A DNA stretch of 64,000 nt from a virus: IMG/VR virus record IMGVR_UViG_3300034418_011250, positions 24,935-88,934 of that record; one strand, given 5' to 3'. Below are positions 1 to 35,992 of this stretch, piece by piece. Within the stretch, counting starts at the first letter, position 1, and the number at the start of each line of letters is the position of its first letter. A program made the translations under genes and the position numbers. The notes beneath the pieces are model-generated. The model was not told the origin of the DNA. It was given only the letters and a program-made list of their open reading frames with translations, and ran no database searches.

Positions 1-1257
1 GAATACATAATCTTTTGAATCATTATCAAGTTTCCAACCATCAGGCACATAAACAATTCCACCTTTCTGATTTATTTCCAGCATCTTTCGATTACCATCT
101 GTTGTATAAAAATGTATTTTTGATTTAACAGGTGTTTCTGAATGATAATCCTGATAATTAGGATCTGTCATCATATCTAGTTCTTTGGTATTTTTTAGAT
201 ATATTGTATTTTCTTTGATTAAACACCGATCAGCCACATTTTTCAACATATTTGCTAATATAACAGACTTCATTCCATAGGAACCATGAACTCCAAGATA
301 GTTTGACATGATTTCCATGACTTCTTTACTATTACTTGTTAAAGAATATTCGGATGGAAATTTATCTGAACCAAATTTTGTTATTTTATAATTTTTATTA
401 TATCCACCATCAATCACCTTGATGAATGATGCATTGAAGAATACTGCTTGTGTTGGTTCTGAACGATGTATGATTCCTGCATCGTTTTTATCAGCAATAC
501 CATGATACCCCAGATCCCTAAAAATTTTATTCCAAAGATTTGTTGGTGAACCTCTCCTGATGTTTTCATACACTTCAATTCTAATTTTTTTGTCTGAAAA
601 ATTAGCACGTTTCTTAGGATCAAGCATTGCTTCTTGAACTTCTTCTTCATATTCTTTCATCAATCTTGTGCTAATTTGGCCTGTCATTATAAAAAATGTA
701 TATCTTGTCATGTTCCAAAATTGACCACCAATGGATCTATTCTTAGAATTCTGTGTTGCTGCTTCTAGAGTTGCTTTCGCCACTTCCCAACTGAACCATT
801 GATTCATCTTATTCTTCTTCATGAAAAAATTGATAATCATTTTGGCAAGTTTATCATAATCTTTATCATAACTAGCAGAACTGTATTTTTTCAGATCAAC
901 AATCTTGTCTGTAGCTTTTGGTTTGAAAATATAAACAAATGGTTGTTCACCAGCAAATGGAACATCCAAAGTTTTATCAACAGGATTTTTGTGTTTCTTC
1001 CAGATTTCTTTCAGAGGATATGAATAAATACCATTTGGTGTATTATATTCTGAATTTGGATTTATTCCAATCTTATAACCTTCTGCACTTTTACTCATTG
1101 AACCTACATCAGCAACATATGTAATATAAACATCACTATCATTGGCTAATGGTTCCAATTTGTCATAAAGAGGAATTTTGGGATTTAATTCTTTTCCTGT
1201 TTTCTTTGAAATAGGATTTCTTCTTGCTTCATCTAAAAAGTTGCGAAATGTTTTCAT
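1..1257 (-). CDS. Probable head-packaged protein with ADP-ribosyltransferase-like (ART-PolyVal-like) region; runs off the left window edge
   Basis: Absent from the ORF track because it has no stop in the window. ATG at 1257 gives MKTFRNFLDEARRNP, resembling the T4 internal-protein targeting peptide MKTYQEFIAE. Motifs IGINPNSEYNTPNGIYSYPL and DLGYHGIADKNDAGIIHRSEPTQAVFF. Frame appears open to position 1. ART call is tentative. Confidence 0.6.
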   Translation of the reverse strand, partial: MKTFRNFLDEARRNPISKKTGKELNPKIPLYDKLEPLANDSDVYITYVADVGSMSKSAEGYKIGINPNSEYNTPNGIYSYPLKEIWKKHKNPVDKTLDVPFAGEQPFVYIFKPKATDKIVDLKKYSSASYDKDYDKLAKMIINFFMKKNKMNQWFSWEVAKATLEAATQNSKNRSIGGQFWNMTRYTFFIMTGQISTRLMKEYEEEVQEAMLDPKKRANFSDKKIRIEVYENIRRGSPTNLWNKIFRDLGYHGIADKNDAGIIHRSEPTQAVFFNASFIKVIDGGYNKNYKITKFGSDKFPSEYSLTSNSKEVMEIMSNYLGVHGSYGMKSVILANMLKNVADRCLIKENTIYLKNTKELDMMTDPNYQDYHSETPVKSKIHFYTTDGNRKMLEINQKGGIVYVPDGWKLDNDSKDYVF

Positions 1258-1259
1258 CT

Positions 1260-1733
1260 TTACGATCCCCAAATAGGTAGTTTTTGTATAATGAATCCTA
1301 GAACAATGGAACCTCCAATGATTAGCCATCTCCATTTTTCTAGAATTCCTATGCGATTTGATATTTCATTATGTAGCTTTTTAAATTCTTCAGTTGTTCG
1401 TTTGTTATGTTCATCCATTACTGTGGTCAGTCTTCGTTCTGTTTCAGCAATATGAAGGAATGTTTCTTTAGAATTGGTTGTAATTCGTGAGTGCAGTTCT
1501 TGTATGTTATCGTGCAATTTCTTTTCCTGACTAATAATGTTATCTTCTTGTCTTGTTAGTTTTTCCTCATGAACTGCCATAATTGTATGCAATGATTGCG
1601 ATACTTCGGCAATCTTTTCAATTGCGGAATCTAAACGTAAATGAATTTGTTTTAAATCGGCTATATCTTTTTTAAGAATAGCAACATCAGTCTCGATTGT
1701 CATTTGGGATGTTTCCTCTAATTGCTTCTTCAT
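1260..1733 (-). CDS. Conserved T4-like phage coiled-coil protein with C-terminal transmembrane helix, next to spanins
   Basis: Heptad-rich helix; C-terminal LEKWRWLIIGGSIVLGFII. Confidence 0.6.
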   Translation of the reverse strand: MKKQLEETSQMTIETDVAILKKDIADLKQIHLRLDSAIEKIAEVSQSLHTIMAVHEEKLTRQEDNIISQEKKLHDNIQELHSRITTNSKETFLHIAETERRLTTVMDEHNKRTTEEFKKLHNEISNRIGILEKWRWLIIGGSIVLGFIIQKLPIWGS

Positions 1734-14167: not shown

Positions 14168-14713
14168 TTAAATGTAGTGCAAATAGCTTCCAACTATATA
14201 TTTTGGTTTTTTGATAGGTTTTAATCCAGCATGATAATGAGTCCATAATGGTGGAAACATTAACACCTTTCCAATCTTCGGTTTTATTTTTATATTAAAG
14301 TCTGGGAATACGGTATCACCACCTTTATTATTATTTAAATATATGAAAAAAACCAAAAATCTTTTTGCTGATGCATAATCTGTAACATCTACATGAGTTC
14401 TAAATTGATCTCCATTATCTGGTAAATATCTCTTCATTCTAAAAATTTCAAATCCATATTTTTCTGGAAATCTATGTAATTCTATCTTTAAATCACTAAC
14501 ATATCTGTATACTAAATTTTTTAAAACATTTTCTAAAATGTCAGAAAAATATTCCCATTCTTTATGTAATTGCAATTTAACTTGAGTAAATGAATAAAAA
14601 CTATCTATACATTCTCTTTCATGATGCTCTGTTTTCTTTTCAAAGAAATCTATAATTTCTTTACAAAAATCTTCAGAAACAACGTTGTTATAACATTTAA
14701 TATAATTATCCAT
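14168..14713 (-). CDS. 2OG-Fe(II) oxygenase (prolyl-hydroxylase-like)
   Basis: HVD...FIYLN...GGDTVF...[11 protein letters not shown]...KYIV. Confidence 0.85.
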
Positions 14714-15764
14714 TCAATAACTCAATTTCTGTAGATTCTTCAGTCTCCTCTATTTTCTGCTGTCCATATTTAAATTCTTTTTTGGCAAAATCATCAAGTT
14801 GTTTCATAATTTCTTCTGTAAAGAATTTCTCAGGATCATTGTTAATTGTTTTTCCAAATGTTTTTGATCCATCTGGCAATTCAATTCTTGTTGATACTGC
14901 TTTGAATATTCCATGCTTCAATGCAAGTTCCAGCAATCCATAATAGCGATCCAATCCACTGTCATACATCAATCTAACATCAACTTGTTTATTCTCAACA
15001 GTCAATCTAGATTTAGCATTTTTACAATGAATTATATTTCCTACAACTTCAGTCCCATCCTTTTCTTTCTTCTTTGAAAGATACACAATAGAACTAGCAG
15101 CATATTTTAATCCTGAACCACCACCCATTTCTTTGGCAGGAAACATCGAACCAACAACATCATAGGTATGATTTGTGACTACCATAGGTATTTTAGCACG
15201 TCCAAGTTTAAGTGTCAAGACTCTAAATGCAGCTTTGATCACCTGAGCTCGAGTCATATCTCTTGTTTCTTTACCATCAGATGTATCTTCGACTTCTTTG
15301 GTTGTTGAAAGCATGCCAAGAGAATCCAGACAAATCATCATTGGTTTTTTATTATCAGATTCAATATATTTGTCAAGAACTTTTATTGCTTGCGTTCTAA
15401 ATTCCTGAACTGTGGTGACTGGAAGTATCACCATGCGACTCGGATCAATTCCTCTGTCAATAATCATCTGCTTTGTAATAGCAGATTCTGATTCAAAATA
15501 CAAAACTCCTGCCTCTGGATTAGAATCTAGAAAACTCTTAACCATTCCCAAAACAAAAAATGTTTTGCCTGTTGCCGACTCACCTGCAATGGCAGTAATC
15601 TTATTTGATGGTAATCCTCCGAAAATAGAGCCAGAAAGAAGTGCATTGAATATATATGATCCAGTATCAATGAATGAATCAACATCTCCTGCCTCAACAC
15701 CATCCGATACCAATGCAGCGTATTCATTTCCAGCAATCTTTGCTATTTCTTGAAAAAAATCCAT
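14706..15764 (-). CDS. uvsX: RecA-like recombinase UvsX
   Basis: [32 protein letters not shown]. Confidence 0.95.
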
Positions 15765-16804: not shown

Positions 16805-17371
16805 TTAGGAAATGTCAAGCATTTTTTTCATGAATTCTACAATTTTTTCTGTATCATCTGGAGTCTCGTGAACAAACGTCTTCACGCAGCCTTCTTCCTC
16901 TCCGAAAAGAGTAGCTCGTGGTCCAAAATGCTCAAGAATATTTTGAACCTTTGTCTTGGTAGTCTGAATGAATTTTTCAGATTGATCAGATCCTCTTTCT
17001 TTGTATCTTCGTTGTCTTTCTTCATCTGAAACTGTCAAGTGAATAATTGTCAACGAATCACCACATGATTCAAAAAACTTCTTGTTGTTGAGACGATCTC
17101 CTTCGCCCACAATCATCTCATTTGTTCTCAAAACATTTGAAATCCAATCAATTGCTTTCGGAGCCACTGCCATCGAAAGTCGATCTGTTCCTCCAAAAAC
17201 TTCTTCATCATTATATTTTCCAAGCACTCTCAATTTTTTTTCTTTAATATATTGAGTATCAAGTAAATCAGCTGGACGATCATCCTTCCAACCTTCAAAT
17301 CCACTCATAAAGTTTCGCATCACAGTGGTCTTTCCAGTTCCTGGAATACCAATCAAATAAACTATCTTCAT
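16805..17371 (-). CDS. P-loop kinase of DNA-modification clusters (candidate 5-hydroxymethylpyrimidine DNA kinase)
   Basis: GIPGTGKT, LGKY...FGGTDRLSM, EGDRL, RYKERGS; overlaps the TET/JBP stop. Confidence 0.75.
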   Translation of the reverse strand: MKIVYLIGIPGTGKTTVMRNFMSGFEGWKDDRPADLLDTQYIKEKKLRVLGKYNDEEVFGGTDRLSMAVAPKAIDWISNVLRTNEMIVGEGDRLNNKKFFESCGDSLTIIHLTVSDEERQRRYKERGSDQSEKFIQTTKTKVQNILEHFGPRATLFGEEEGCVKTFVHETPDDTEKIVEFMKKMLDIS

Positions 17372-18792
17372 TGAAAAAATCCTTCTAATGTAGGTTTTTG
17401 AGCATATGCTTCTGGATGATATTCTTGCACCATATCCCTTCCACCTTTGTCCTCTAGAAAATCATACCATTCTTTCTCATTGAACATATTCGGTGAAACA
17501 CCATTCCAATATTGTTTCCAAAGTCTATGACCTTTATTCAATCTCCTTGTGTCAACAAAGTTTTTACGAATAGCTTCATATTCCCATGATCCAAGATTAT
17601 CCATATCTTCACGGAAATAGAATACTAATGACATTCTCATCATGTTTTCTTCACCAGAATCTGGAGCAGTAATCGGTGTATTCCCATGAATAACACGCAT
17701 GTTGTCAATTAGCAAAAGATCTCCAGGTCTGACATTGACAGCCATCCGAACTTCTGGAACAACCAAATATCCACCTTTCCAGTCTTTGTTATCCTTTGTG
17801 ATTACTGTTAGATTGCTATATCCAGCATTCAAAGAACCTGCATCTCGATGACATGCCATTCTGGCATTTCTTTCCTTTGTTGTTGTATTGACAGTAATCG
17901 TGGTGAATGTAGTATCTTCGCCAATGAGAAATTTATTGTCGAGTCTATCAGCAAATTCTTGTTGTGCCAAATGTCGATTTGGCATTAGTCTTTTGAATTC
18001 TTTCTCCAGTTTTCTAGCAAACGGATAACATTTTGCAAACTGCTCAAGATTATTATCAGTATATGCTGTTGCTCTTCCATATGGAATTCTTGGATATCTT
18101 CCATAGTAACCAGCAATACCTGACCAAAGACCAGCAGCATATGCTGTATTTGAAATCCATTTTTCTCTTACAAGTTTTGAAAACTTTGTTGCCTCTTCAA
18201 TTGGCATTGCTTTTATTCTACTCACCAGCTTAGGAAAAAATCCATCATATTCAGGATAATCTTGTTCTACAACATCTCGCAACCAACAGAATCCTCTGGT
18301 ATTCTTGACATATTTTCCAAGATGTTCTTCCATAATAGTCTGTAATGGATCTGTTCCATCAAGACTTTTTGGTTGTCCTGCCATAAAATACTCAAGCACA
18401 TCATATTGATATGGTGTTACCCATTCTCTTCCTGCTAGCTTTTCTGTTTTTGGACCAGCTGCGAGTCCTCGATTATGAGATTCAGCTGCAGCATCAAACA
18501 ATCCTTCAAATGCACCTTGTTGTTCCTCAGCAGTAAAAACATTTTTTCTAAATTTAAAAGCAATTTTGCTTTCATCCGCAAGATCTGTATGATACTCTTT
18601 TTTATCATAATTGTATTCAGGTGGAAAGTATAAATCTGTATCACTATCAATCAGAATATCATATGATTCATCATTAACATATGTTCCCAAAACTTTTTCT
18701 TCATCAAGAACCTGCATGGCAACATAAACATCTTGTCCTTCATCCCCTTTATATTTCTGCCACTTATTTCCATTTATTTCTAAAATTTCCAT
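17368..18792 (-). CDS. TET/JBP-family 2OG-Fe(II) dioxygenase (pyrimidine 5-methyl oxidase)
   Basis: NRGLAAG, SGIAGYY, FTTITVN, HRDAG (HxD), HGNT, RMSLVFYFRE. Confidence 0.85.
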   Translation of the reverse strand: MEILEINGNKWQKYKGDEGQDVYVAMQVLDEEKVLGTYVNDESYDILIDSDTDLYFPPEYNYDKKEYHTDLADESKIAFKFRKNVFTAEEQQGAFEGLFDAAAESHNRGLAAGPKTEKLAGREWVTPYQYDVLEYFMAGQPKSLDGTDPLQTIMEEHLGKYVKNTRGFCWLRDVVEQDYPEYDGFFPKLVSRIKAMPIEEATKFSKLVREKWISNTAYAAGLWSGIAGYYGRYPRIPYGRATAYTDNNLEQFAKCYPFARKLEKEFKRLMPNRHLAQQEFADRLDNKFLIGEDTTFTTITVNTTTKERNARMACHRDAGSLNAGYSNLTVITKDNKDWKGGYLVVPEVRMAVNVRPGDLLLIDNMRVIHGNTPITAPDSGEENMMRMSLVFYFREDMDNLGSWEYEAIRKNFVDTRRLNKGHRLWKQYWNGVSPNMFNEKEWYDFLEDKGGRDMVQEYHPEAYAQKPTLEGFFQ

Positions 18793-19793
18793 CAGAATGC
18801 CTCCAGTCCCATTAATTGTTTTGTAAATGTATTGTTGTAATCTATAACACCTGTATTTAGAAAAATTTCCATCTTTGTTTTGTTTATTTTGTTTATCAAG
18901 TATTCTCTTCGTATTGACTCATCTCTACATTGCCATAATGGTGTCCAGTCAATTCCATCCCAACCATCACGCTCTACTTGTTTAATTTCTTCAGCTTGTC
19001 GATCTAGATAATAACCAAGATATCTGCCATTTCTTTTACGGAATAGTTTTTTGAATGAACAAAGACATGTTTCCATTGCAAAATAATCAGCCTTGTTTGC
19101 TTGTTCTGGAAACAATGCTTTAACCTCTTTAAGAATCTCAGATCCTTGACTTTCCATCCAATCAATTTGATCTTGATCTAGAACCTTGTCAACCCAATCA
19201 TCTTTTCCAAGAGCAAAGCATAATCCATTTCGATGTGATCTAGATCCTGAATAATCTTTCAACCAAAGATTATCAATATCAATATTTAATCCGCATGTTT
19301 GTTTTAAAGTTTGAATATAGAACCATGACATGTATCTTCCATACTTGTGCCATGTGTTTACTTCTTTCCAAAGATTATAAAAATTGGTAAATGGATCTTC
19401 TGTGAACAAACTTTGGAATGCTTCAAGTTGACTTCTGCCACCTACCCATTCTTTGTATGAAAGAAATTGAGCAGGAAGATGTCCTTTATTCCATTTTGTG
19501 TCTGTTTGGTATCTGAGTCTTTTGTAATTTTCAGTATTCCATTGCTCAAGTCGATCGACTCCAACAAGTTCCATGTCAGGAAATTCATTCCAGATTACGT
19601 ATGCAGTCGGAAAATGATAAGTTGTGCCATATATCCATGTGATCCAAAGTCTTTGTTCGATATTGAATTCAAATCTGTCATAAAAATAATTCAACATGTA
19701 AAGAGCAGGATCGCAATCATCTATAATCAGCGACCATCCAAACCAATCAATGAATGCTCTTTTTCTATTTTCCAGCAAACGATAATCCATCAA
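18792..19793 (-). CDS. aGPT-pyrophosphorylase clade 2 / amino acid:DNA transferase (helix-hairpin-helix fold)
   Basis: DCDPALY, KYGRYMSWFY, SHRNGL, METCLCSFKK, RYLGYYLDR. Confidence 0.75.
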   Translation of the reverse strand: MMDYRLLENRKRAFIDWFGWSLIIDDCDPALYMLNYFYDRFEFNIEQRLWITWIYGTTYHFPTAYVIWNEFPDMELVGVDRLEQWNTENYKRLRYQTDTKWNKGHLPAQFLSYKEWVGGRSQLEAFQSLFTEDPFTNFYNLWKEVNTWHKYGRYMSWFYIQTLKQTCGLNIDIDNLWLKDYSGSRSHRNGLCFALGKDDWVDKVLDQDQIDWMESQGSEILKEVKALFPEQANKADYFAMETCLCSFKKLFRKRNGRYLGYYLDRQAEEIKQVERDGWDGIDWTPLWQCRDESIRREYLINKINKTKMEIFLNTGVIDYNNTFTKQLMGLEAF

Positions 19794-20434
19794 AACTTCT
19801 CTAATGAAGGTACATCAAAAAGATAATTTCTTAGCCAATATTTTCCGACCTTTGTTATGGAGTCCTCAACTTTTTGTCGCTTCACCTTTCCGAACTTATG
19901 ATAATCTATACTCTCTTTTCTCAAAAGATCAAGAACTTTTTTGTCTGTAGGAATCGCAATAGAGGGATTATTTATAGCTTCTTCTCGAAAGCTCAATTGT
20001 TCTTCTTTCGTGGAAAACAATGGTTGATCTGATCTCAGAGATCCGGATGAGTCAACAGCCCAGAATACCAATCCATTTCGAATATGCCAGCTAATAGAAG
20101 TTGGTGTGCAAGATATTTTCAATCTTCTCATTTGATTTTTATATGCATCATTCATCACATATTCCCAGATTAAAGAGGCATATCCTTTTCCTTCATATCC
20201 TTGGAAAGTCACAATCTCGTAAAGATTGATATAAGAAGTTCTTTTACTATATGTAGCGAATACAGCAGAGACTGGTTGATCATTGTCATACATTACTATT
20301 GGAGGATTTTTGTCATAGTTTTTAAAACGAATCCACAAACTATGAGCAGAATTTAAAAACTTGGTATTGGTGCCATTTTCTGAATTCTCAATAATGTTAT
20401 TAATATTTTCATGGTTGTTGGTCTTGAATATCAT
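19790..20434 (-). CDS. GNAT-family acyltransferase
   Basis: INLYEIVT...YEGKGYAS (acyl-CoA binding motif A), RLKISC...SISWH.RNG. Confidence 0.75.
   Translation of the reverse strand: MIFKTNNHENINNIIENSENGTNTKFLNSAHSLWIRFKNYDKNPPIVMYDNDQPVSAVFATYSKRTSYINLYEIVTFQGYEGKGYASLIWEYVMNDAYKNQMRRLKISCTPTSISWHIRNGLVFWAVDSSGSLRSDQPLFSTKEEQLSFREEAINNPSIAIPTDKKVLDLLRKESIDYHKFGKVKRQKVEDSITKVGKYWLRNYLFDVPSLEKF
19969..19976 (-). promoter_or_regulatory. Possible internal late promoter TATAAATA upstream of the transferase/TET/kinase genes
   Basis: Exact match within the GNAT gene; could be chance in an AT-rich genome. Confidence 0.35.
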
Positions 20435-21071
20435 GAGGGTTCTTTACTTTTCTTTCTCCTTGATTTGTGTATTTTACATACATCTCACATCTTTGTGGAT
20501 TTTGCAATCCACTTCGAATGGCAATATCTTTTGTTGATGTGAATATAATTCCTCTTTGCAATTTTGTATACCATAATGGTCTTGATTCATTTCTAAATCC
20601 TGTAATACCATTATCAACATCTAACATCACGACTGCCATGCTAGATGGAACAAAGTCTGTCAATGGATTTTTATTATTCTCAAGTGATTGTAGAATCAAT
20701 TCACTATCATTTGCAGTCTCCGTTTCGTACTTCCATGTACTTTGATCTTCCTGAGAAATCACCCCATTATGAACAATGCTATATTTATCTGAAGAAAATG
20801 GTTGAGGATATCTTAGATCAGATGTTGAATAACGAATATGTCCCAGCAAACAGATCGAACCATCTTCATCGATACATCTTTCAAAATTTATTTTTTCAAG
20901 AAATTTGTCTGCTGGAATATTTTCTTTTTTGGTTAGTATTTCAGAATGCTTTCGATATGAAATACCAGTAGCATGTTTTCCTCGAATCATTGTCTGTTTG
21001 AATATTTTTCTTATCAAAGAAATATCTTGATCATTGACATCCGTTAATTCGATTCCTATAACTCCACACAT
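20409..21071 (-). CDS. Class II (Ntn) glutamine amidotransferase, stand-alone
   Basis: N-terminal nucleophile MCGVIG, RGKHATG, GHIRYSTS, HNGVI, NDSE, RPL. Confidence 0.85.
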   Translation of the reverse strand: MCGVIGIELTDVNDQDISLIRKIFKQTMIRGKHATGISYRKHSEILTKKENIPADKFLEKINFERCIDEDGSICLLGHIRYSTSDLRYPQPFSSDKYSIVHNGVISQEDQSTWKYETETANDSELILQSLENNKNPLTDFVPSSMAVVMLDVDNGITGFRNESRPLWYTKLQRGIIFTSTKDIAIRSGLQNPQRCEMYVKYTNQGERKVKNPHDIQDQQP

Positions 21072-21280
21072 TATGCTACCAGCCAGAATTGTTTATTTAA
21101 AATGGATTCTAATCGTACTGAAGTAATTACTCCATATCCTTTTTCTTTCTCAGGAAGAACTACTGGACTACCATTTTTCCAATGTATGTAGACCATACTA
21201 CCTTTAGGAAGAGCATTTGTCAAGTTCTTTGCTTGTTTAAATATTAATTTCTGTGCATCAATTCTAGTCATACTATTCAC
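21071..21280 (-). CDS. Small hypothetical protein
   Basis: Overlaps the gp43 stop and the amidotransferase start. Confidence 0.5.
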   Translation of the reverse strand: MNSMTRIDAQKLIFKQAKNLTNALPKGSMVYIHWKNGSPVVLPEKEKGYGVITSVRLESILNKQFWLVA

Positions 21281-23784
21281 CCAAAGAAATTGTCAAGTGT
21301 TGGCTGTGTTCCATATGTACGATCAATATCCCAGCCGATTTGGCGAACAATGAACATCAATGGTTCCACAAAAGCCTTTTCGAATTGAACTTCATAATCA
21401 ACATATGAAGCCACATCTAGTTCTTTTGGCAGTTTACTAATAAAAGAAATTACATTTGACTGTAATGGATTGGGCTTTCTTAGATTGAGAAATTTGATCT
21501 TTTCACCTTCTTGAATCAAAGGAAATTTAGAGATCAATTTATTACGTTTGAGAAGATAATTATAAATCAATGCTCCTTTGCAATGCATTGGAGTTGATTT
21601 ACGGTAAATAGAGGATGAATCACTCCACTTGTCAAGTCCATTGACGGATCTTGGAAATGCGATATCCTCTGCAGGAAGTTTCATGAATTCATTTCTAAAG
21701 TTCTGAATGAATTTATTAATCTGTGTTTCATCACCAGACATGATAACCTTGAGAGCCTCCTTAATCTTTTCTCTGCAAGGATATGGAGTTGATGATTTGA
21801 CAGCCTCAATGCCCATAATTTTCAATTGAGGATCAGCATATCTGACACCTTCGATATCCCACGCATTCAGAATATATCTTTTCTTTGCAACCCAGATGCC
21901 TTTGTCAGCAATCACCTCTCGTTTCATCTGCATCTTCTGAGAAAATGCATTCATGTATTGTTTGAGTTCTTCATAGCATTCATCGATGTATGGTTCTACC
22001 TTCTCTTTGGCAACTGTATCAAGAAAAGAAACTACTTTCTCAATAGAAAGATCTTCACCGAATACTTTGTCAATAAGTTTATCAAAACAAATATAAACTG
22101 AATCTGTATCAGATGCAATCACATAATCTTCATTTTTAGTTTTAAGAAGATTGTTGAGATATTCATTTAGCTTTCGTTCAATCCAGCGAATCGAAAGCTG
22201 ACCAGCAGTGGTTACACCTTCAGCAATCGCAAGATCAAAGTATCGGAACCATTCATTACCAATAGCACCATAGGCTGAGTTCAATGAGATCTTTCTTGCC
22301 ATCTGAATGTTATTATAACGTGACACATCATTCAGATATTGAGGATTCTTAGTATTCTCATATTGTTGTTTCGCATGAAGCATCTTTTTCTTGTATGTTG
22401 TTCGATCATCATACAGCTGCTGCATCATGGCAGGAAGAAATCCTTGTTTGGAAATTCTGAATTTGGTTCCATTTGGTGTCATCGTCAAATTCTTTTCCTT
22501 CAGGAATTCTGTATCATACTCCTTGGATACAAACTCACCAATCTTAGTATCACCAAAGTTTACACCATCATCAGCCAGAGTTTCTGGAGAGATATTGTAT
22601 TGAATTATCAAGTGTGGATACAATGAATTCAAGTCAAACGAAAGAACCCATTTATGTTGTCCAACTGCTGGATCCTTGACATATGCTCCGGAGAATTGTC
22701 CAGACTTCGAGGATGAGCTCTTTTGTGGAATCACAATGTTTTGTGTTCGCAGATGATTGTAAATTAGCACATCCCAATATTTTACTGAAGTAAATGCATC
22801 TTGGAAGTTGACTTTTGCTTCATATGCCATAGTCATCAACAAATCCATTAGCTTCATTTTAGCATCTAGACGTTCTACCAGAAGAACATCTTGAATATTG
22901 TAATCAATGAAACTTTGATAATCTGATGTGTACCATTCCTTAAATGTTTCATAAGGATTCTCATCTTTCCTTTCTCCTAGTTCTACAAATGCAATATGGT
23001 CAAGTTTATATGATTCCTGATTTGTATAGGTAAACTTTTGATACAATTGTTGATAATCAAGATTAGAAATGCCTAGAATCTCATAAACAGTATTGGTCTT
23101 TCCGAATTTACCATTTATCTTTTTCTCATTGACAATCTTCCAAGGAGAAAGTCTTTTCAGTGCATCATTACCAAATATACGTTTGATTCGATTGCAGATG
23201 TAAGGAATATCAAAGAATTCAGTATTCCAGCCTGTGATTGCATCTGGATGAATTGATTCCCACCAGTCAATGAATCTGTTTAGAAGTTCGACTTCATTCT
23301 GGCACTGATTGTATTGAACAAATTCATTATCTGTTTTGTATTCACCAATACCCCAAACAATGATGTCATCAAATCCATATCTTTTGACAGTGATTGAAAG
23401 AAGTTCTTCAGCAGCAATTTCTTGATTGGGAAATCCATTTTCGCATTGAACTTCGATGTCAATCGTATAGACTTGCATCAAAGATCGATCGAATCGAATA
23501 TCTTGATAATTGTCCGCAATATAAGTATAGACAAATTGATTCAATCCATAAACCAATTCAGGTTGATTCTCATAATGAGAAACAAATTCTTTGGCTTCTT
23601 TGATTGTTTCGAATTTTATGGGTGAGACTGAGGAACCTTCCAAAGTTTTGAATTTGGAAGGTTTCTGAGAAGGAACATAGAGAGTAGGCTTGTATCGAAT
23701 AGCCTTGTTGAATCTTTCACCATTCTTTACACCACGCAGGAAAATATTGTTTCCCCACTGAGCCACGTGCGTATAGAAATTCAT
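21277..23784 (-). CDS. gp43: Family B DNA polymerase gp43
   Basis: DIEV exonuclease I, SFDLNSLYPH, KISLNSAYG, ASDTDS; C-terminal clamp tail TLDNFFG; no intein or intron. Confidence 0.98.
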   Translation of the reverse strand: MNFYTHVAQWGNNIFLRGVKNGERFNKAIRYKPTLYVPSQKPSKFKTLEGSSVSPIKFETIKEAKEFVSHYENQPELVYGLNQFVYTYIADNYQDIRFDRSLMQVYTIDIEVQCENGFPNQEIAAEELLSITVKRYGFDDIIVWGIGEYKTDNEFVQYNQCQNEVELLNRFIDWWESIHPDAITGWNTEFFDIPYICNRIKRIFGNDALKRLSPWKIVNEKKINGKFGKTNTVYEILGISNLDYQQLYQKFTYTNQESYKLDHIAFVELGERKDENPYETFKEWYTSDYQSFIDYNIQDVLLVERLDAKMKLMDLLMTMAYEAKVNFQDAFTSVKYWDVLIYNHLRTQNIVIPQKSSSSKSGQFSGAYVKDPAVGQHKWVLSFDLNSLYPHLIIQYNISPETLADDGVNFGDTKIGEFVSKEYDTEFLKEKNLTMTPNGTKFRISKQGFLPAMMQQLYDDRTTYKKKMLHAKQQYENTKNPQYLNDVSRYNNIQMARKISLNSAYGAIGNEWFRYFDLAIAEGVTTAGQLSIRWIERKLNEYLNNLLKTKNEDYVIASDTDSVYICFDKLIDKVFGEDLSIEKVVSFLDTVAKEKVEPYIDECYEELKQYMNAFSQKMQMKREVIADKGIWVAKKRYILNAWDIEGVRYADPQLKIMGIEAVKSSTPYPCREKIKEALKVIMSGDETQINKFIQNFRNEFMKLPAEDIAFPRSVNGLDKWSDSSSIYRKSTPMHCKGALIYNYLLKRNKLISKFPLIQEGEKIKFLNLRKPNPLQSNVISFISKLPKELDVASYVDYEVQFEKAFVEPLMFIVRQIGWDIDRTYGTQPTLDNFFG

Positions 23785-23843: not shown

Positions 23844-24235
23844 GCTATTTGTTCCTGCCTCTTTTTTCCAATATTGTATTTTGTCTCAAGAACCCATTCA
23901 TCCTTCTCCTTGAATCCGATGATCTTGATTTGTGAGAGAGGAGCCTTTGGCTCTGCCTCCCCATGAACTGTGACAAGATCCCAGTCCTGAAGAAGCCCAG
24001 CAATGGTATTCCTTCGAGAAATATCATTTTCATTTATGTTGGTTTCTTTTCCATCAAGAGCAAATAATTCCTTGAAATGAACAATATAATATTTGCCTTG
24101 TTTGTGAAGAATATGGCAGGATTGAAATAGTTTCTTTTCTTTACGAGATGCAACACCTATTCTAGAAAGTGTTTCACGAACCTTAAGAAAATCATCAGGT
24201 TCTTTGATTGTTACTTCTAACATGTTATTAATCAT
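23840..24235 (-). CDS. regA: Translational repressor RegA
   Basis: DDFLKVRETLSRIG...QSCHILHKQGKYYIVHFKELF. Confidence 0.96.
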   Translation of the reverse strand: MINNMLEVTIKEPDDFLKVRETLSRIGVASRKEKKLFQSCHILHKQGKYYIVHFKELFALDGKETNINENDISRRNTIAGLLQDWDLVTVHGEAEPKAPLSQIKIIGFKEKDEWVLETKYNIGKKRQEQIA

Positions 24236-24621
24236 TTTCTTCCACCTTTGTTCAAGCTATCTTTGATAGTAGTAATTTGTTCATCAGATAGTAGTTCAAG
24301 AGCAGCTTTAGCTTTATCATTACTATAACCATAATACTCTTTCACATACTCCAGATCCTTAATCTTATTTGCTTTCAACCATGGTGCAAATCTTTTCTTG
24401 GGTCTAATTGTATTTATAAAAAAGTCAAATTTGAGTTTATTATCAATTTGATGATGAACATTCATCTCATTTGCAAACATTATGGTGTCTTGAAATGAAG
24501 ATAAGATATGATTGACAACATATGCTGGATACTTCTTTTCCCACATTGGATCATCAGAATCCATCAAGTTTTCTTTTGTGAAGTTTATTGCATTCAAATA
24601 CTCCTTTAGTTCATAACTCAT
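24232..24621 (-). CDS. gp62: Clamp loader small subunit gp62
   Basis: FANEMN...KRFAPWLK...VKEYYGYSNDKA. Confidence 0.92.
   Translation of the reverse strand: MSYELKEYLNAINFTKENLMDSDDPMWEKKYPAYVVNHILSSFQDTIMFANEMNVHHQIDNKLKFDFFINTIRPKKRFAPWLKANKIKDLEYVKEYYGYSNDKAKAALELLSDEQITTIKDSLNKGGRK
24411..24418 (-). promoter_or_regulatory. Possible late promoter TATAAATA inside gp62, upstream of regA
   Basis: Exact match, intragenic. Confidence 0.4.
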
Positions 24622-25553
24622 TTAAACCTCACATTTGACATGATTTCTGTCATACAAGCTAACAGATTGATCTCTTGGTCACTGACAAATGCAGACTTAT
24701 ATTGGTAATCTGCAATAATTAAAACCAACTGTGGAACACTAGCAGGTTCCAATCGTTCATATAGAGTATCGTAAATTTTACGATAGATTCTAGTAGGATC
24801 ATTATCAAGATTATTTGCAACCCATTTCCTCAAATTACCAAATTCTTTTTCTTTAAGAAAACTTGTCATTTCTTTCAAGTTCTCGTCTGAAATATTTACA
24901 AGAATACCAGCATCGATTTCACCTGATGCTGAATATCTTTGTAACTCATTTAAACACCTTCTCCAATCAGGAAAAAATTTCTCAATTATCCCTGCAACAG
25001 CCTTTGGATTAAACTTGACATTTTCTTCTTCTAATATCTCAGTGATACGTTTAAAGAATTGTGCTGCAAGTTTGGGTTTCTCTTCATTTGGTATTCTAAA
25101 TTCAACGACAGAACATCGTGAATGTAGTGGTTCAATGATGCGATTCTTAAAATTACAAGTTAAAATGAATCCGCAATTTTTATGAAACTCCTCAATGAAT
25201 CCACGAAGAGCAGGTTGAGTTGATTGGGGATTTAGATAATCTGCCTCATCAAGAATTACAAACTTTCTGTTTGTATCAAATGAAACAGTAGATGCAAAGT
25301 TTTTAATCTTGTTTCTGAGAACATCAATACCTGATTCCTCAGAACCATTGATCATCATGTATGTGGCATCAATTTGTTGCAACATAGCCTTTGCAACAGT
25401 AGTTTTACCTACTCCTGGACCGCCTGAAAGCAAAAGATTAGGAATATGTTCATCATCTACAAATTGTTGAAATGTATTCTTCAATTGTACTGGAAGAATA
25501 CAATTCTCAATAGAGTCTGGGCGATATTTTTCTACCCACAAATAATTTTTCAT
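24618..25553 (-). CDS. gp44: Clamp loader AAA+ subunit gp44
   Basis: LWVEKYRP, GGPGVGKT, LDEAD, SRC. Confidence 0.96.
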   Translation of the reverse strand: MKNYLWVEKYRPDSIENCILPVQLKNTFQQFVDDEHIPNLLLSGGPGVGKTTVAKAMLQQIDATYMMINGSEESGIDVLRNKIKNFASTVSFDTNRKFVILDEADYLNPQSTQPALRGFIEEFHKNCGFILTCNFKNRIIEPLHSRCSVVEFRIPNEEKPKLAAQFFKRITEILEEENVKFNPKAVAGIIEKFFPDWRRCLNELQRYSASGEIDAGILVNISDENLKEMTSFLKEKEFGNLRKWVANNLDNDPTRIYRKIYDTLYERLEPASVPQLVLIIADYQYKSAFVSDQEINLLACMTEIMSNVRFK

Positions 25554-25577
25554 AACAAAAACTCCAAAAGGATATTA

Positions 25578-26237
25578 TCAATTAGACTCAAGCGCAACAT
25601 AATACTCTAGATCTTGCCCTTTCTTTTTAAAATGCGAAATACCAACACTAGCAATTCCTACCTCATAATCTCCAGGAAGAACTTTTAGATTTTCAGTCTT
25701 AAAACATGATGTAAGATTGGTTGTTGAAGAATCACCAACTACAAGTGAAAATGTATTTGATGTATCATTCTTTCGATCAGTAACAGTCATTTGAACTTCA
25801 CCTGATTCATATGAATTCACAACAAGATCTGGTGTTCCAAGAATTGCAGCTGATCTTTGAATTTGAGAAAACTCTTCTTGAGTCAATGTAAATTGAACAT
25901 CAATAACTGGCATTTGAATGTCTGTTTTTGGTTCCTTCACCATGTCAGTAGGTGTGTAAAAATATTTACTAGAAGTTTTGCTTCCTTCTTCCTGAATAAG
26001 AATATATTTTTCTTCAAAATTCAAGATTGGTGTTTTGAACAGAGAAAGTGTTGAAAGAAATTCGTTCAAATCATAAATAGCACACTCCTGCTCAAAGTCT
26101 TCTGTAATATTTGCGATTGCTACAATGTTTTTCATTGCACTCATTGTCGCAACTTTATTTCCTGGTTTGATTAACAAGTTTGAATTGATTGTTGAAAAGT
26201 TCTTCAAAATTTCACGAGTTTCATTACTCAGTTTCAT
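25578..26237 (-). CDS. gp45: Sliding clamp gp45
   Basis: MKLSNETREILKNFSTINS...IYDLNEFL...YYVALE. Confidence 0.94.
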   Translation of the reverse strand: MKLSNETREILKNFSTINSNLLIKPGNKVATMSAMKNIVAIANITEDFEQECAIYDLNEFLSTLSLFKTPILNFEEKYILIQEEGSKTSSKYFYTPTDMVKEPKTDIQMPVIDVQFTLTQEEFSQIQRSAAILGTPDLVVNSYESGEVQMTVTDRKNDTSNTFSLVVGDSSTTNLTSCFKTENLKVLPGDYEVGIASVGISHFKKKGQDLEYYVALESN

Positions 26238-26514
26238 TAGTTTCTCCATAGTTTAAATCATGAACATGTAGTGCCATTATGGCATAGTGAACAACCTTCA
26301 GTAGATCCTTTCGGTTGTAACCATCTTTCTTACCGTATCTCTGCGCATACTTCAAGATATTTCCAATACAAAATCCTTCACCATGTCCAGAGTCTATAAT
26401 GAATTCTGTTGCTTGAAAATTGTTTTGTGAATAATGCTGAGCGTAGGTCTTGTTAATATAATCGACAATCTCAAGAATAAGATTATCTTCATTATATTTG
26501 TATTGAATACTCAC
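26224..26514 (-). CDS. DUF3310-like conserved protein
   Basis: HY...GFCIGNILKYAQRYGKKDG...DLLKVVHY. Confidence 0.75.
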   Translation of the reverse strand: MSIQYKYNEDNLILEIVDYINKTYAQHYSQNNFQATEFIIDSGHGEGFCIGNILKYAQRYGKKDGYNRKDLLKVVHYAIMALHVHDLNYGETNETE

Positions 26515-34339: not shown

Positions 34340-35401
34340 TTAAATTTCCAATTCACTTGCTTCTAAATATAATGACTTCATCATTCCAGACAATCTTTGC
34401 TTGTCAAGAGATATTTCAAGTTCATCAATATAATTTTCTAATAACGAAACAGTATCTTCAGATTTCTCAACAATATCATCTGAAACATTATCAGCATCTA
34501 AATCTGAAAAATCCTCAATAATCTTTACTTCATGTGCTGTGCTTTTTAGAAGTTTATCAATGAACAAATCAAATCCATAAAGATCTGTTTTGTTTACAAC
34601 TACAACCTTGGTGTATTTCTCATGTACAGTATTAAAATCAAAATTAGAATAATCATAATTTCTATCGTCATAATATAACTTGTAGAAGATGGTGTGAGGA
34701 TTAACGATTCTTTCTAATTCACGAGTCTTGACATCAAACACATGAAATCCTCTTGGGCATTTATAATCAGCCCATGTTATTTCATATGTATTTCCAAGAT
34801 AATATATTTGTCCATCATCTGACTTCTTATGAAAATGACCAGAAAATACTAAATCAAATTTATTAAACAAATCTTTATCATAACCTCCTTGAGCATAATT
34901 ACCTGAATGCATTTCAAATCCATTGATTTCCAAATGCCCCATGGCAATCTGAGCTTTTGTTGCTTTAATCTTTTCCATGGTGTCAGCATAGTTTTCACTA
35001 TTGATCCATGGAATCATTAAAATAGGAGTATGATTAAATTTAATCTCAGAGCATTCTTGATAAATGTGAACATTTGGAAATTTGCCTGTAATCAATTCTG
35101 TCAATGAATTTACTTCATTGGTGTTTCGATAAAATATATCATGATTACCCACCAACATATGAAGCTCTATCTTCATATCAAAGAAAGGTTGTAAAAATCT
35201 TTCACGAAAATCTTTGGCAATTCTATATGAAACAAATTTTCTTCGATCCATAACATCACCAAGATGAAGAACATGCTTTATATTGTTCTCTTTCAAATAT
35301 GGAAAAAATGTTTCTTCCCAAAATTTGTAAAAGAAATCATTAAAAATGATACTGTCCGACCTAGCTCCGAAGTGACTGTCGGTAATTAATGCTACTTTCA
35401 T
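34340..35401 (-). CDS. gp47: Recombination endonuclease subunit gp47 (Mre11/SbcD-like)
   Basis: DSHFG, LGD, GNHD, GHLE, SGHFH. Confidence 0.96.
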   Translation of the reverse strand: MKVALITDSHFGARSDSIIFNDFFYKFWEETFFPYLKENNIKHVLHLGDVMDRRKFVSYRIAKDFRERFLQPFFDMKIELHMLVGNHDIFYRNTNEVNSLTELITGKFPNVHIYQECSEIKFNHTPILMIPWINSENYADTMEKIKATKAQIAMGHLEINGFEMHSGNYAQGGYDKDLFNKFDLVFSGHFHKKSDDGQIYYLGNTYEITWADYKCPRGFHVFDVKTRELERIVNPHTIFYKLYYDDRNYDYSNFDFNTVHEKYTKVVVVNKTDLYGFDLFIDKLLKSTAHEVKIIEDFSDLDADNVSDDIVEKSEDTVSLLENYIDELEISLDKQRLSGMMKSLYLEASELEI

Positions 35402-35925
35402 GCTTTACAAAATTTCTCAAGTCCTTTTGGTTTGTCAACTTTTTTCTTTTTAGTTTTATAAACTTCTTCATCTGGCAGGTAATTCTTTTGAAGATAATCA
35501 GTATAATAATTGGTTAGATCTTCATTGTCTTCTATTCCAATAATGGATGGATCAAAATTAATGTTTTCAATTATTTTGTGTTTGATATGTTGTTGTTTCT
35601 TTTCCTTTTGAATTCTTCGCACAAAAGCATAGAATACTATTTGTGTGAAATAACCGAATGGATTGTTGTATTTTTCGTGATCAAAATTGTGGGCATATTG
35701 TATACAATTCTCGATTCCATCAAGAATCATTTCATCTTTGTAAGTATAGTTGATGAAGTTTGGGCGATAAGAAAGGTGAGTTGCAATCTTTAAAAAACAC
35801 TCTCCAAGATATTCTGGAATTGGTGGTGTTTCTTCTCCTAAATCCTCAGCTTCAATATAACTTTCCCTCCACTTTTTAATAGCTTCATAAAATTCATCAT
35901 TATTGATGTAATGTTTTTTCTTCAT
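35398..35925 (-). CDS. gp55: Late-transcription sigma factor gp55
   Basis: HYINN, FINYTYKDEMILDGIENC, NPFGYFTQI; start at 35925 with GGAG SD. Confidence 0.95.
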   Translation of the reverse strand: MKKKHYINNDEFYEAIKKWRESYIEAEDLGEETPPIPEYLGECFLKIATHLSYRPNFINYTYKDEMILDGIENCIQYAHNFDHEKYNNPFGYFTQIVFYAFVRRIQKEKKQQHIKHKIIENINFDPSIIGIEDNEDLTNYYTDYLQKNYLPDEEVYKTKKKKVDKPKGLEKFCKA

Positions 35926-35949
35926 AATACTCCATGAAAAATAAAAACC

Positions 35950-35978
35950 ATTATACCTCAGAAAAAAATAATTGTCAA
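35950..35978 (-). promoter_or_regulatory. Consensus sigma70 promoter for gp55
   Basis: TTGACA-17 nt-TATAAT. Confidence 0.85.
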
Positions 35979-35992
35979 GCAAAAAAAATAAC

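Follow-up and report, generated by a model that had tools for sequence, protein, structure and literature searches.

How do the enzymes that hypermodify phage DNA after its replication find that DNA, reach high occupancy on it, and spare the DNA of the host? The question is raised by a stretch of 64,000 nucleotides, hereafter the window, which covers positions 24,935 to 88,934 of the IMG/VR virus record IMGVR_UViG_3300034418_011250 and belongs to an 88.9-kb contig from a T4-like myovirus with a low GC content (~33%). Three neighbouring genes of this phage encode a TET/JBP dioxygenase (hereafter TET), an amino acid:DNA transferase (ADDT, formerly aGPT-Pplase), and a GNAT-fold protein (GNAT), and all three proteins end in a short tail like the one that closes the phage DNA polymerase, gp43. 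The reading proposed here, to which we assign a probability of about 70%, is that these tails tether the three enzymes to gp45, the phage's sliding clamp, for post-replicative hypermodification. It is this question of targeting that a clamp-binding tail would address.

The C-termini are written here and below so that the last letter precedes the stop codon. TET ends in QKPTLEGFFQ, ADDT in QLMGLEAF, and GNAT in DVPSLEKF, and the two reference tails of the same phage are TQPTLDNFFG in gp43 and KPKGLEKFCKA in the late sigma factor gp55, all five genes being on the minus strand. An earlier note on this DNA had quoted these five endings and described them as sharing the pattern [STG]L[DE]xF; every one of them reads as quoted in the translated sequence, and the pattern is indeed common to the three enzymes, gp43, and gp55. 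Among the 332 open reading frames (ORFs) of at least 50 amino acids on the contig, no others have it in their last 12 residues. Judged from the frequency of the motif inside proteins, 0.076 such tails would be expected in the 119 called genes, so that the Poisson probability is 2e-8 for five or more, and 7e-5 for three or more if only the three enzymes are considered. In the T4 record, gp43 ends in ASLDFLFG and gp55 in SLDFLYEAND.

Short hydrophobic endings can be alike by accident or by composition, and this possibility has to be weighed first, since the motif has five residues and was defined post hoc, after the tails had been seen, yet it has been replicated in independent loci. The caution is a real one for loose patterns. 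A looser form of the motif also matches a baseplate hub protein (phrog_150; L009:2291-2989, plus strand, on the contig upstream of the window), whose ending GLQNFF is likely a chance look-alike on a structural protein, and in the whole genome of phage Cr30 the loose pattern was seen four times against about two expected, which is no different from chance.

The replication comes from 80 related IMG/VR loci taken with 10-kb flanks, in which genes were called and the motif was scored in the last 10 residues. In these loci, 169 of the 1330 called genes end in the motif against 0.85 expected. The carriers include TET in 73 of 80 cases, ADDT in 35 of 43 (with tails of the form GLE/DxF(F/M)), GNAT in 18 of 27, and gp43 in 12 of 14 (as [ST]L[ED]xFFx). 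The earlier note had held that its proposal would fall if the tails were not conserved among T4-like homologues, and these counts reveal the opposite, namely that they are conserved. Among the best 120 of 2100 TET homologues (60-90% identity), nearly all end in [ST]L[ED]xFF followed by zero or one residue, and the stretch that follows the conserved YHPEA is variable. When the endings are anchored, the logos of gp43, TET, ADDT, and GNAT coincide, reading S/T (G in ADDT), L, E/D, x, F, F/L/M, end, with an entropy of 2.2-3.1 bits in the four to six residues before the motif and below 0.5 bits at its L and F. By these alignments, the tails are conserved short linear motifs carried on variable, flexible linkers outside the catalytic fold. 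Accidental likeness is very improbable in view of the excess in the related loci, the fixed distance from the stop despite the variable linkers, and the confinement of the motif to one gene neighbourhood.

This confinement is worth describing further. When TET, gp43, and gp55 are set aside, the motif closes 78 of the 644 genes within 4 kb of TET and one of the 538 genes farther away (Fisher p 1.5e-20, a value that overstates the independence of the observations because the loci are related). The 27 carriers outside the reference families all lie within ~1.5 kb of TET, and include TET-associated glycosyltransferases (TAGT, PF20691), GT1, a second GNAT, an HNH protein, a weak methyltransferase-like match, and small unknowns. 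The claim of the earlier note that three unrelated folds had acquired the tail is borne out by the dioxygenase, ADDT, and GNAT of this phage, and extends in its relatives to TAGT, GT1, HNH, and other proteins. In the 80 loci, the motif is missing from the kinase (0/35) and the glutamine amidotransferase (GATase, 0/37) of the same cassette, and from gp45, gp44, gp62, and regA (0 for each). Enzymes that make soluble precursors also lack the tail, as seen for the GATase, the nucleoside triphosphate (NTP)-transferase of phage DLP6, and the UDP-galactopyranose mutase of phage C48C1. The motif is thus limited to the polymerase, gp55, and modification enzymes that act on DNA.

Regarding the identity of the three tailed enzymes, TET matches PF12851 over residues 248-395 (E 2.5e-14, 53.3 bits against a gathering cut-off of 34.9), and its iron triad HxD...H (H315, D317, H369) is invariant across 24 aligned homologues; the AlphaFold2 (AF2) model of the full-length protein, built from a 24-row alignment, has a pLDDT of 56.6, a quality that neither supports a fold search nor allows the N-terminal 245 residues to be assessed. 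ADDT matches PF18724 (E 2.9e-22, 80 bits against a cut-off of 26.2), and a kinase gene of family PF18751 is in the same operon. For the third protein, the Pfam scores remain under the cut-offs (PF14542, 20.1 against 30; PF00583, 19.0 against 20.7), the comparison of its family profile with PDB sequences was not significant (best E 0.14), and tblastn against the phage collection gave no match. Its AF2 model, however, has a pLDDT of 93.4, with residues 207-214 as a coil of pLDDT ~52, and Foldseek returned 360 PDB matches at E <= 0.001, the top ones listed all being GNAT N-acetyltransferases with target TM scores of 0.54-0.70. On this model, the GNAT label is firm by fold, and weak by sequence.

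Clusters for thymidine hypermodification in which Tet/JBP takes the place of the dUMP hydroxymethylase have been published (PMC8989533), and a published clade of phage T-dioxygenases is associated with GATases, P-loop kinases, and AADTs (PMC13229309). The TET of this phage probably acts on thymine rather than on 5-methylcytosine, because the kinase, ADDT, and GATase genes adjoin it as in the published T-dioxygenase clade, ThyX (PF02511) is encoded on the contig, and no C5-methyltransferase was noticed; neither such an enzyme nor a dUMP hydroxymethylase was noticed in the contig, where no dedicated search for them was made.

Read in this way, the operon kinase-TET/JBP-ADDT-GNAT-GATase would encode a post-replicative pathway of thymidine hypermodification. 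TET would oxidise thymine in DNA to 5-hydroxymethyluracil (5-hmU), which the kinase would then phosphorylate; ADDT would transfer an amino acid to it, leaving GNAT and the GATase to complete the adduct. The motif [S/T/G]-L-[E/D]-x-F-(F/L/M), followed by zero to two residues, would make TET, ADDT, and GNAT clients of gp45, and clamps loaded by gp44/62 at the phage forks and left on the new DNA would hold the enzymes there, so that they could scan fresh phage DNA in one dimension. We infer, along with the binding to gp45, that the clamp would stimulate modification, and that phage DNA would be preferred over host DNA.

If the tails are clamp ligands, they should be considered together with the clamp and the polymerase of each phage. 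The phage of the window encodes its own gp45 and genes in the clamp-loader positions gp44 and gp62 (24232-26249). The comparison of T4-like phages with others, which had been proposed in the earlier note, came out in favour of the clamp, as the tails are kept in the T4-like phages and absent from the TET homologues of the Pelagibacter podophage HTVC112P and the Synechococcus phage S-CBWM1, in neither of which gp45 was found; the HTVC112P gene has a ParB gene next door. There is likewise no such tail on the TET homologue of the Nonlabens phage P12024L, where gp45 was not searched for. As for pairs within one genome, C48C1 has ATLEDFFG on its polymerase and ISLEEFFV on TET; DLP6 has ATLDSFFA on the polymerase, ATLGDFFV on TET, and SDLSSFFN on TAGT; and Cr30 has ADLSSLFD on the polymerase, SDLSKLF on a TAGT-like protein, and GATLF on TET. 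For the last two phages, the tails of the annotated coding sequences were relied on, the scan of the DLP6 genome having lost the known carriers gp43 and TAGT. Among distant TET representatives (clusters at 50% identity), the full-length ones mostly keep the tail, with a few distant ones bearing LExFF-like tails, and a related-locus search with the distant representative P0219 gave no match. Many of the short representatives (~300 amino acids; P0153-P0269) end instead in EELERAK(R/N)xxxGDPL(Y/W) and further residues, and this ending may correspond to the C-terminal extension reported for the ParB-dependent subclass (PMC13229309).

A different test of the relation between the tails of the enzymes and that of the polymerase is offered by the Ackermannviridae, of which those examined encode gp45. 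Thymidine hypermodification has been studied experimentally in this family. In Cba120, four of the 205 genes end in V[NS]L[LM]x[LM][LM] plus two to four residues, namely the polymerase, a 70-amino-acid phrog_4789 protein, the kinase orf243, and the ADDT orf248, and the motif has no internal match in 49,005 residues. In the Vibrio phage 1.244.A, K[KR][KR]LW closes five of the 212 genes: the C-terminal part of the polymerase, the orthologous phrog_4789 protein, the ADDT, a kinase-type phrog_4409 protein, and phrog_2396, of unknown function. From one phage to the other, the tails of the enzymes therefore change their form together with the tail of the polymerase.

Two further observations concern the same genomes. 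The phrog_4789 orthologues, of 70 amino acids in Cba120 (NC_016570.1 28731-28943; L105:9731-9943, minus strand) and 98 amino acids in the Vibrio phage (MG592609.1 60010-60306; L116:3010-3306, plus strand), each carry the polymerase-type tail of their own phage, and by sequence they are candidates for a gp33-like clamp-binding co-activator of late transcription in Ackermannviridae. In addition, the family-B polymerase is split into separate ORFs in the Vibrio phage (MG592609.1 133401-138842, one piece with an in-frame TGA) and likewise in the IMG/VR contig behind L134 (G001:C1:166297-170638), which points to inteins, introns, or similar intervening elements.

The covariation also bears on an explanation that leaves the clamp out, according to which the tails join the modification enzymes in a complex, or serve their folding, stability, or turnover, and resemble the polymerase tail by convergence on a generic acidic-hydrophobic C-terminus. 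The carriers are indeed neighbours in one operon, and the ParB-dependent phage T-dioxygenases need their C-terminal extension for activity, in a role unrelated to a partner (PMC13229309). However, a tail that serves the enzymes among themselves would hardly be expected on the polymerase and gp55, which stand outside the pathway, or in glycosyltransferase-type cassettes of another chemistry, nor would it be expected to follow the polymerase tail in Ackermannviridae or to be missing from the operon's own kinase and GATase, and we consider this explanation quite unlikely. The presence of the motif in the polymerase and gp55 also led us to reject a degradation tag and a packaging signal.

For the binding itself, a complex was predicted between TET residues 443-474 and the trimer of gp45, both partners being given as alignments, and the result speaks weakly in favour. 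The prediction scored 0.60 against 0.02 for the best control, with the runs agreeing in at least 71% of the contacts and a partner pLDDT of at least 48. Of 80 solved complexes, 58 came up to the mark used, as did two of 110 mismatched pairs, and a score of 0.60 or lower was obtained by only seven of the 80 solved complexes, as well as by both of the mismatches that passed. Moreover, the sequence relatives of gp45 in the PDB are T4 gp45 (1czd, 6drt) and RB69 gp45 (1b77, 1b8h), and since similar gp45-peptide complexes have already been solved (1b8h, 6drt), the pass may reflect memory on the part of the predictor.

The precedents are of two kinds. Reportedly, the binding of a DNA-modifying enzyme, the T4 alpha-glucosyltransferase (alpha-GT), to gp45 was described by Sommer et al. 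in 2004. The enzyme co-purifies with gp45, as confirmed by pull-down in 2026 (PMC13216743), and the novelty asserted in the earlier note is reduced accordingly, an alpha-GT that binds gp45 being already on record. As for the clamp clients proper, the tails of T4 gp43, gp55, and gp33 bind gp45 and are interchangeable (PMC2988020), and T4 ligase is bound to gp45 through an internal GLDFLF loop, as seen in a crystal structure (PMC6212786). Full-text searches of the literature turned up no article that connects TET/JBP, ADDT, or any further hypermodification enzyme with gp45 or with tails of the polymerase type. Of the two articles on the clusters, the word clamp does not occur in PMC8989533 and means ParB in PMC13229309, and neither mentions gp45 or polymerase-like tails.

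Several results weigh against the tethering of these enzymes by gp45. The DNA kinase of the pathway must act on DNA and yet has no tail in this clade, and the ADDT of Cr30 has none. The tail motif also resembles QL[SD]LF, the motif of peptides that bind the bacterial beta clamp. A complete phage of 306 kb has a gp45-like gene (with one in-frame TAA in the match) and a TET without a clear tail; its split polymerase ends in SSLIKFKTNI and the neighbour of its TET in QSLRGFVCKK, and we regard this phage as ambiguous and count it neither for nor against. From the experimental side, kinases and transferases of the ViI type need no clamp to act on naked DNA in vitro, meaning that the tail is not needed for catalysis (PMC8989533), and for T4 alpha-GT the interaction with gp45 was judged not to be what mainly sets the pattern and levels of modification (PMC13216743). 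Together, the untailed kinase and Cr30 ADDT, the activity on naked DNA, and the alpha-GT result argue against a strict requirement for the tail. Finally, in the Aeromonas phage TSW001 (PV714136.1 141790-144166 and 1591-4788), a pair of adjacent ADDT-like proteins has the ending TKKLW and the polymerase a VN-type tail, VNVLKFFKQKEA (also given as KKVNVLKFFKQKEA), so that tail and polymerase are not always matched; the mismatch could come from the horizontal transfer of a cassette, or from the existence of two kinds of docking peptide.

The mismatch in TSW001 and the general bacterial beta-clamp form of the motif are also what can be said in favour of docking to another hub, be it the host beta clamp (DnaN), the single-strand-binding protein gp32 of the phage, or another component of the replisome that touches the polymerase, and to these should be added that the complex prediction with gp45 is weak. 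We deem such a hub unlikely, since the homologous polymerase tail of T4 and RB69 binds gp45 (PMC2988020, PMC6212786), the motif is shared by gp55, a known client of gp45, and every phage in which the tails were seen encodes gp45, the two in which no gp45 was found having none. Docking to gp45 is accordingly the reading that is kept in what follows.

The features of the locus are collected in Table 1. The genes of the cassette form a minus-strand run between gp43 and uvsX (14706-15764), with starts and stops that overlap or abut, and their order from the gp43 side is a 69-amino-acid ORF, GATase, GNAT, ADDT, TET, the kinase, a 194-amino-acid protein, and MazG. For gp44 and gp62, which have no family match, the names were taken from the gene order next to regA and gp45, and from the annotated loader subunits of DLP6 and Cr30 that they match in blastp.

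Table 1. Genes of the window considered in the text, with positions counted from the first nucleotide of the window.
Feature	Position	Strand	Family match	C-terminal tail
TET/JBP 2-oxoglutarate/Fe(II) dioxygenase, 474 aa	17368-18792	minus	PF12851	TLEGFFQ and stop, 17368-17391
ADDT, 333 aa	18792-19793	minus	PF18724	GLEAF and stop, 18792-18809
GNAT-fold protein, 214 aa	19790-20434	minus	fold match	SLEKF and stop, 19790-19807
gp43, family-B DNA polymerase, 838 aa	21277-23793	minus	PF00136, PF03104, phrog_262	TLDNFFG and stop, 21277-21300
gp45, sliding clamp (likely start 26237)	25578-26249	minus	PF09116, phrog_223	
Clamp loader genes, positions of gp44 (24618-25553) and gp62 (24232-24621)	24232-25553	minus		
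gp55, late sigma factor	35398-35982	minus	phrog_234, E 1.8e-60	GLEKFCKA and stop, 35398-35424
P-loop kinase, 5-hydroxymethyldeoxyuridine (5-hmdU) DNA kinase type, 188 aa	16805-17371	minus	PF18751, E 6e-15, 55.7 bits vs cut-off 27	no tail
Class-II GATase, 220 aa	20409-21071	minus	PF13522	no clamp-type tail
Cassette protein, 194 aa	16161-16745	minus	no Pfam or PHROG match	no tail in this phage

Some of the proteins without the motif, or with a variant of it, deserve a brief mention. For the 194-amino-acid cassette protein, the ESM Atlas offers a GIY-YIG/Eco29kI-type nuclease as a lead and nothing firmer (score 0.94), and an 86%-identical relative (L006:10027-10695) has gained a C-terminal extension that ends in STLEGFF. 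The GATase closes with HDIQDQQP (window 20409-20435), and its relatives (L011-L085) with EDLQP, DLQ, or DLQC; this conserved ending, DLQ(P/C), may serve for docking to some other partner. The contig also encodes a T4-type RNase H (PF02739 and PF09293; L010:4636-5493, minus strand, upstream of the window), whose ending NLTESLSEF is a near-variant of the tail and fits the RNase H-gp45 contact that has been proposed and is mentioned in PMC6212786. Lastly, a 488-amino-acid protein with no family match (window 1-1335, minus strand, continuing upstream; L010:11803-13269, minus strand) has the acidic-hydrophobic end KGLFDDIDDLD.

The observations lead to a broader and tentative proposal, toward which we lean less than away from it: post-replicative hypermodification in phages that encode a clamp may follow a general rule, by which the polymerase tail is copied, with oxidases, kinases, amino-acid transferases, acyltransferases, and glycosyltransferases each speaking the clamp-binding dialect of their lineage, be it LExFF in the marine T4-likes, VNLLxMM in Kuttervirus, or a terminal KKLW in the Vibrio Ackermannviridae. 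The loaded clamp would then be the mark of self that confines the oxidation of thymine, and the steps that come after it, to phage DNA that has just been replicated. That a modification enzyme may work with the clamp is, in general terms, an older idea; what is added are the tails of ADDT and GNAT, hence the amino-acid-transfer version of the pathway, the contrast between DNA-acting and precursor-making enzymes, the covariation in Ackermannviridae, and the connection with the alpha-GT precedent. It is also suggested that the T-dioxygenases that depend on ParB and those with a gp45 tail use two different DNA clamps for the same problem. For genome annotation, the tail could serve as a sequence signature of DNA-acting modification enzymes in T4-like phages and Ackermannviridae, and for the use of these enzymes as tools, removing the tail or supplying the clamp could alter processivity.

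Among known systems, the nearest in gene content are the published hypermodification clusters, which agree with this cassette in their set of genes and in the chemistry inferred (PMC8989533; PMC13229309). Their T-dioxygenases are stand-alone or ParB-dependent, whereas the TET described here is longer (474 amino acids) and has a clamp-type tail, and no ParB-type gene was noticed beside it. T4 alpha-GT offers the likeness of a DNA-modifying enzyme associated with the phage clamp, physically in its case, and of a modification proposed to proceed along with replication. It differs in that it ends in EQFDIITK, which is not a polymerase-like tail, in that its fold and chemistry are unrelated to those of the enzymes discussed here, on which one canonical tail recurs across many unrelated proteins, and in that its alpha/beta glucosylation ratio is not mainly set by the interaction with the clamp (PMC13216743). 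With the peptides of T4 and RB69 gp43, gp55, and gp33, and with the loop of T4 ligase (1b8h, 6drt), the tails share a short acidic-hydrophobic motif, [S/T/G]-L-[D/E]-x-aromatic/hydrophobic, its location on a variable linker at, or close to, the very C-terminus, and the presence of gp45 and its loader in the same phage. The carriers here are base-modifying enzymes, known from sequence, rather than proteins of replication or transcription, and their motif is LExFF instead of LDFLF. Farther away, in eukaryotes, the DNA-modifying enzyme DNMT1 is brought to newly replicated DNA by a clamp-binding peptide, the PIP box, that couples it to PCNA. The two systems have no homology, and where DNMT1 is a single maintenance methylase, here a whole multi-step pathway of phage hypermodification is apparently recruited.

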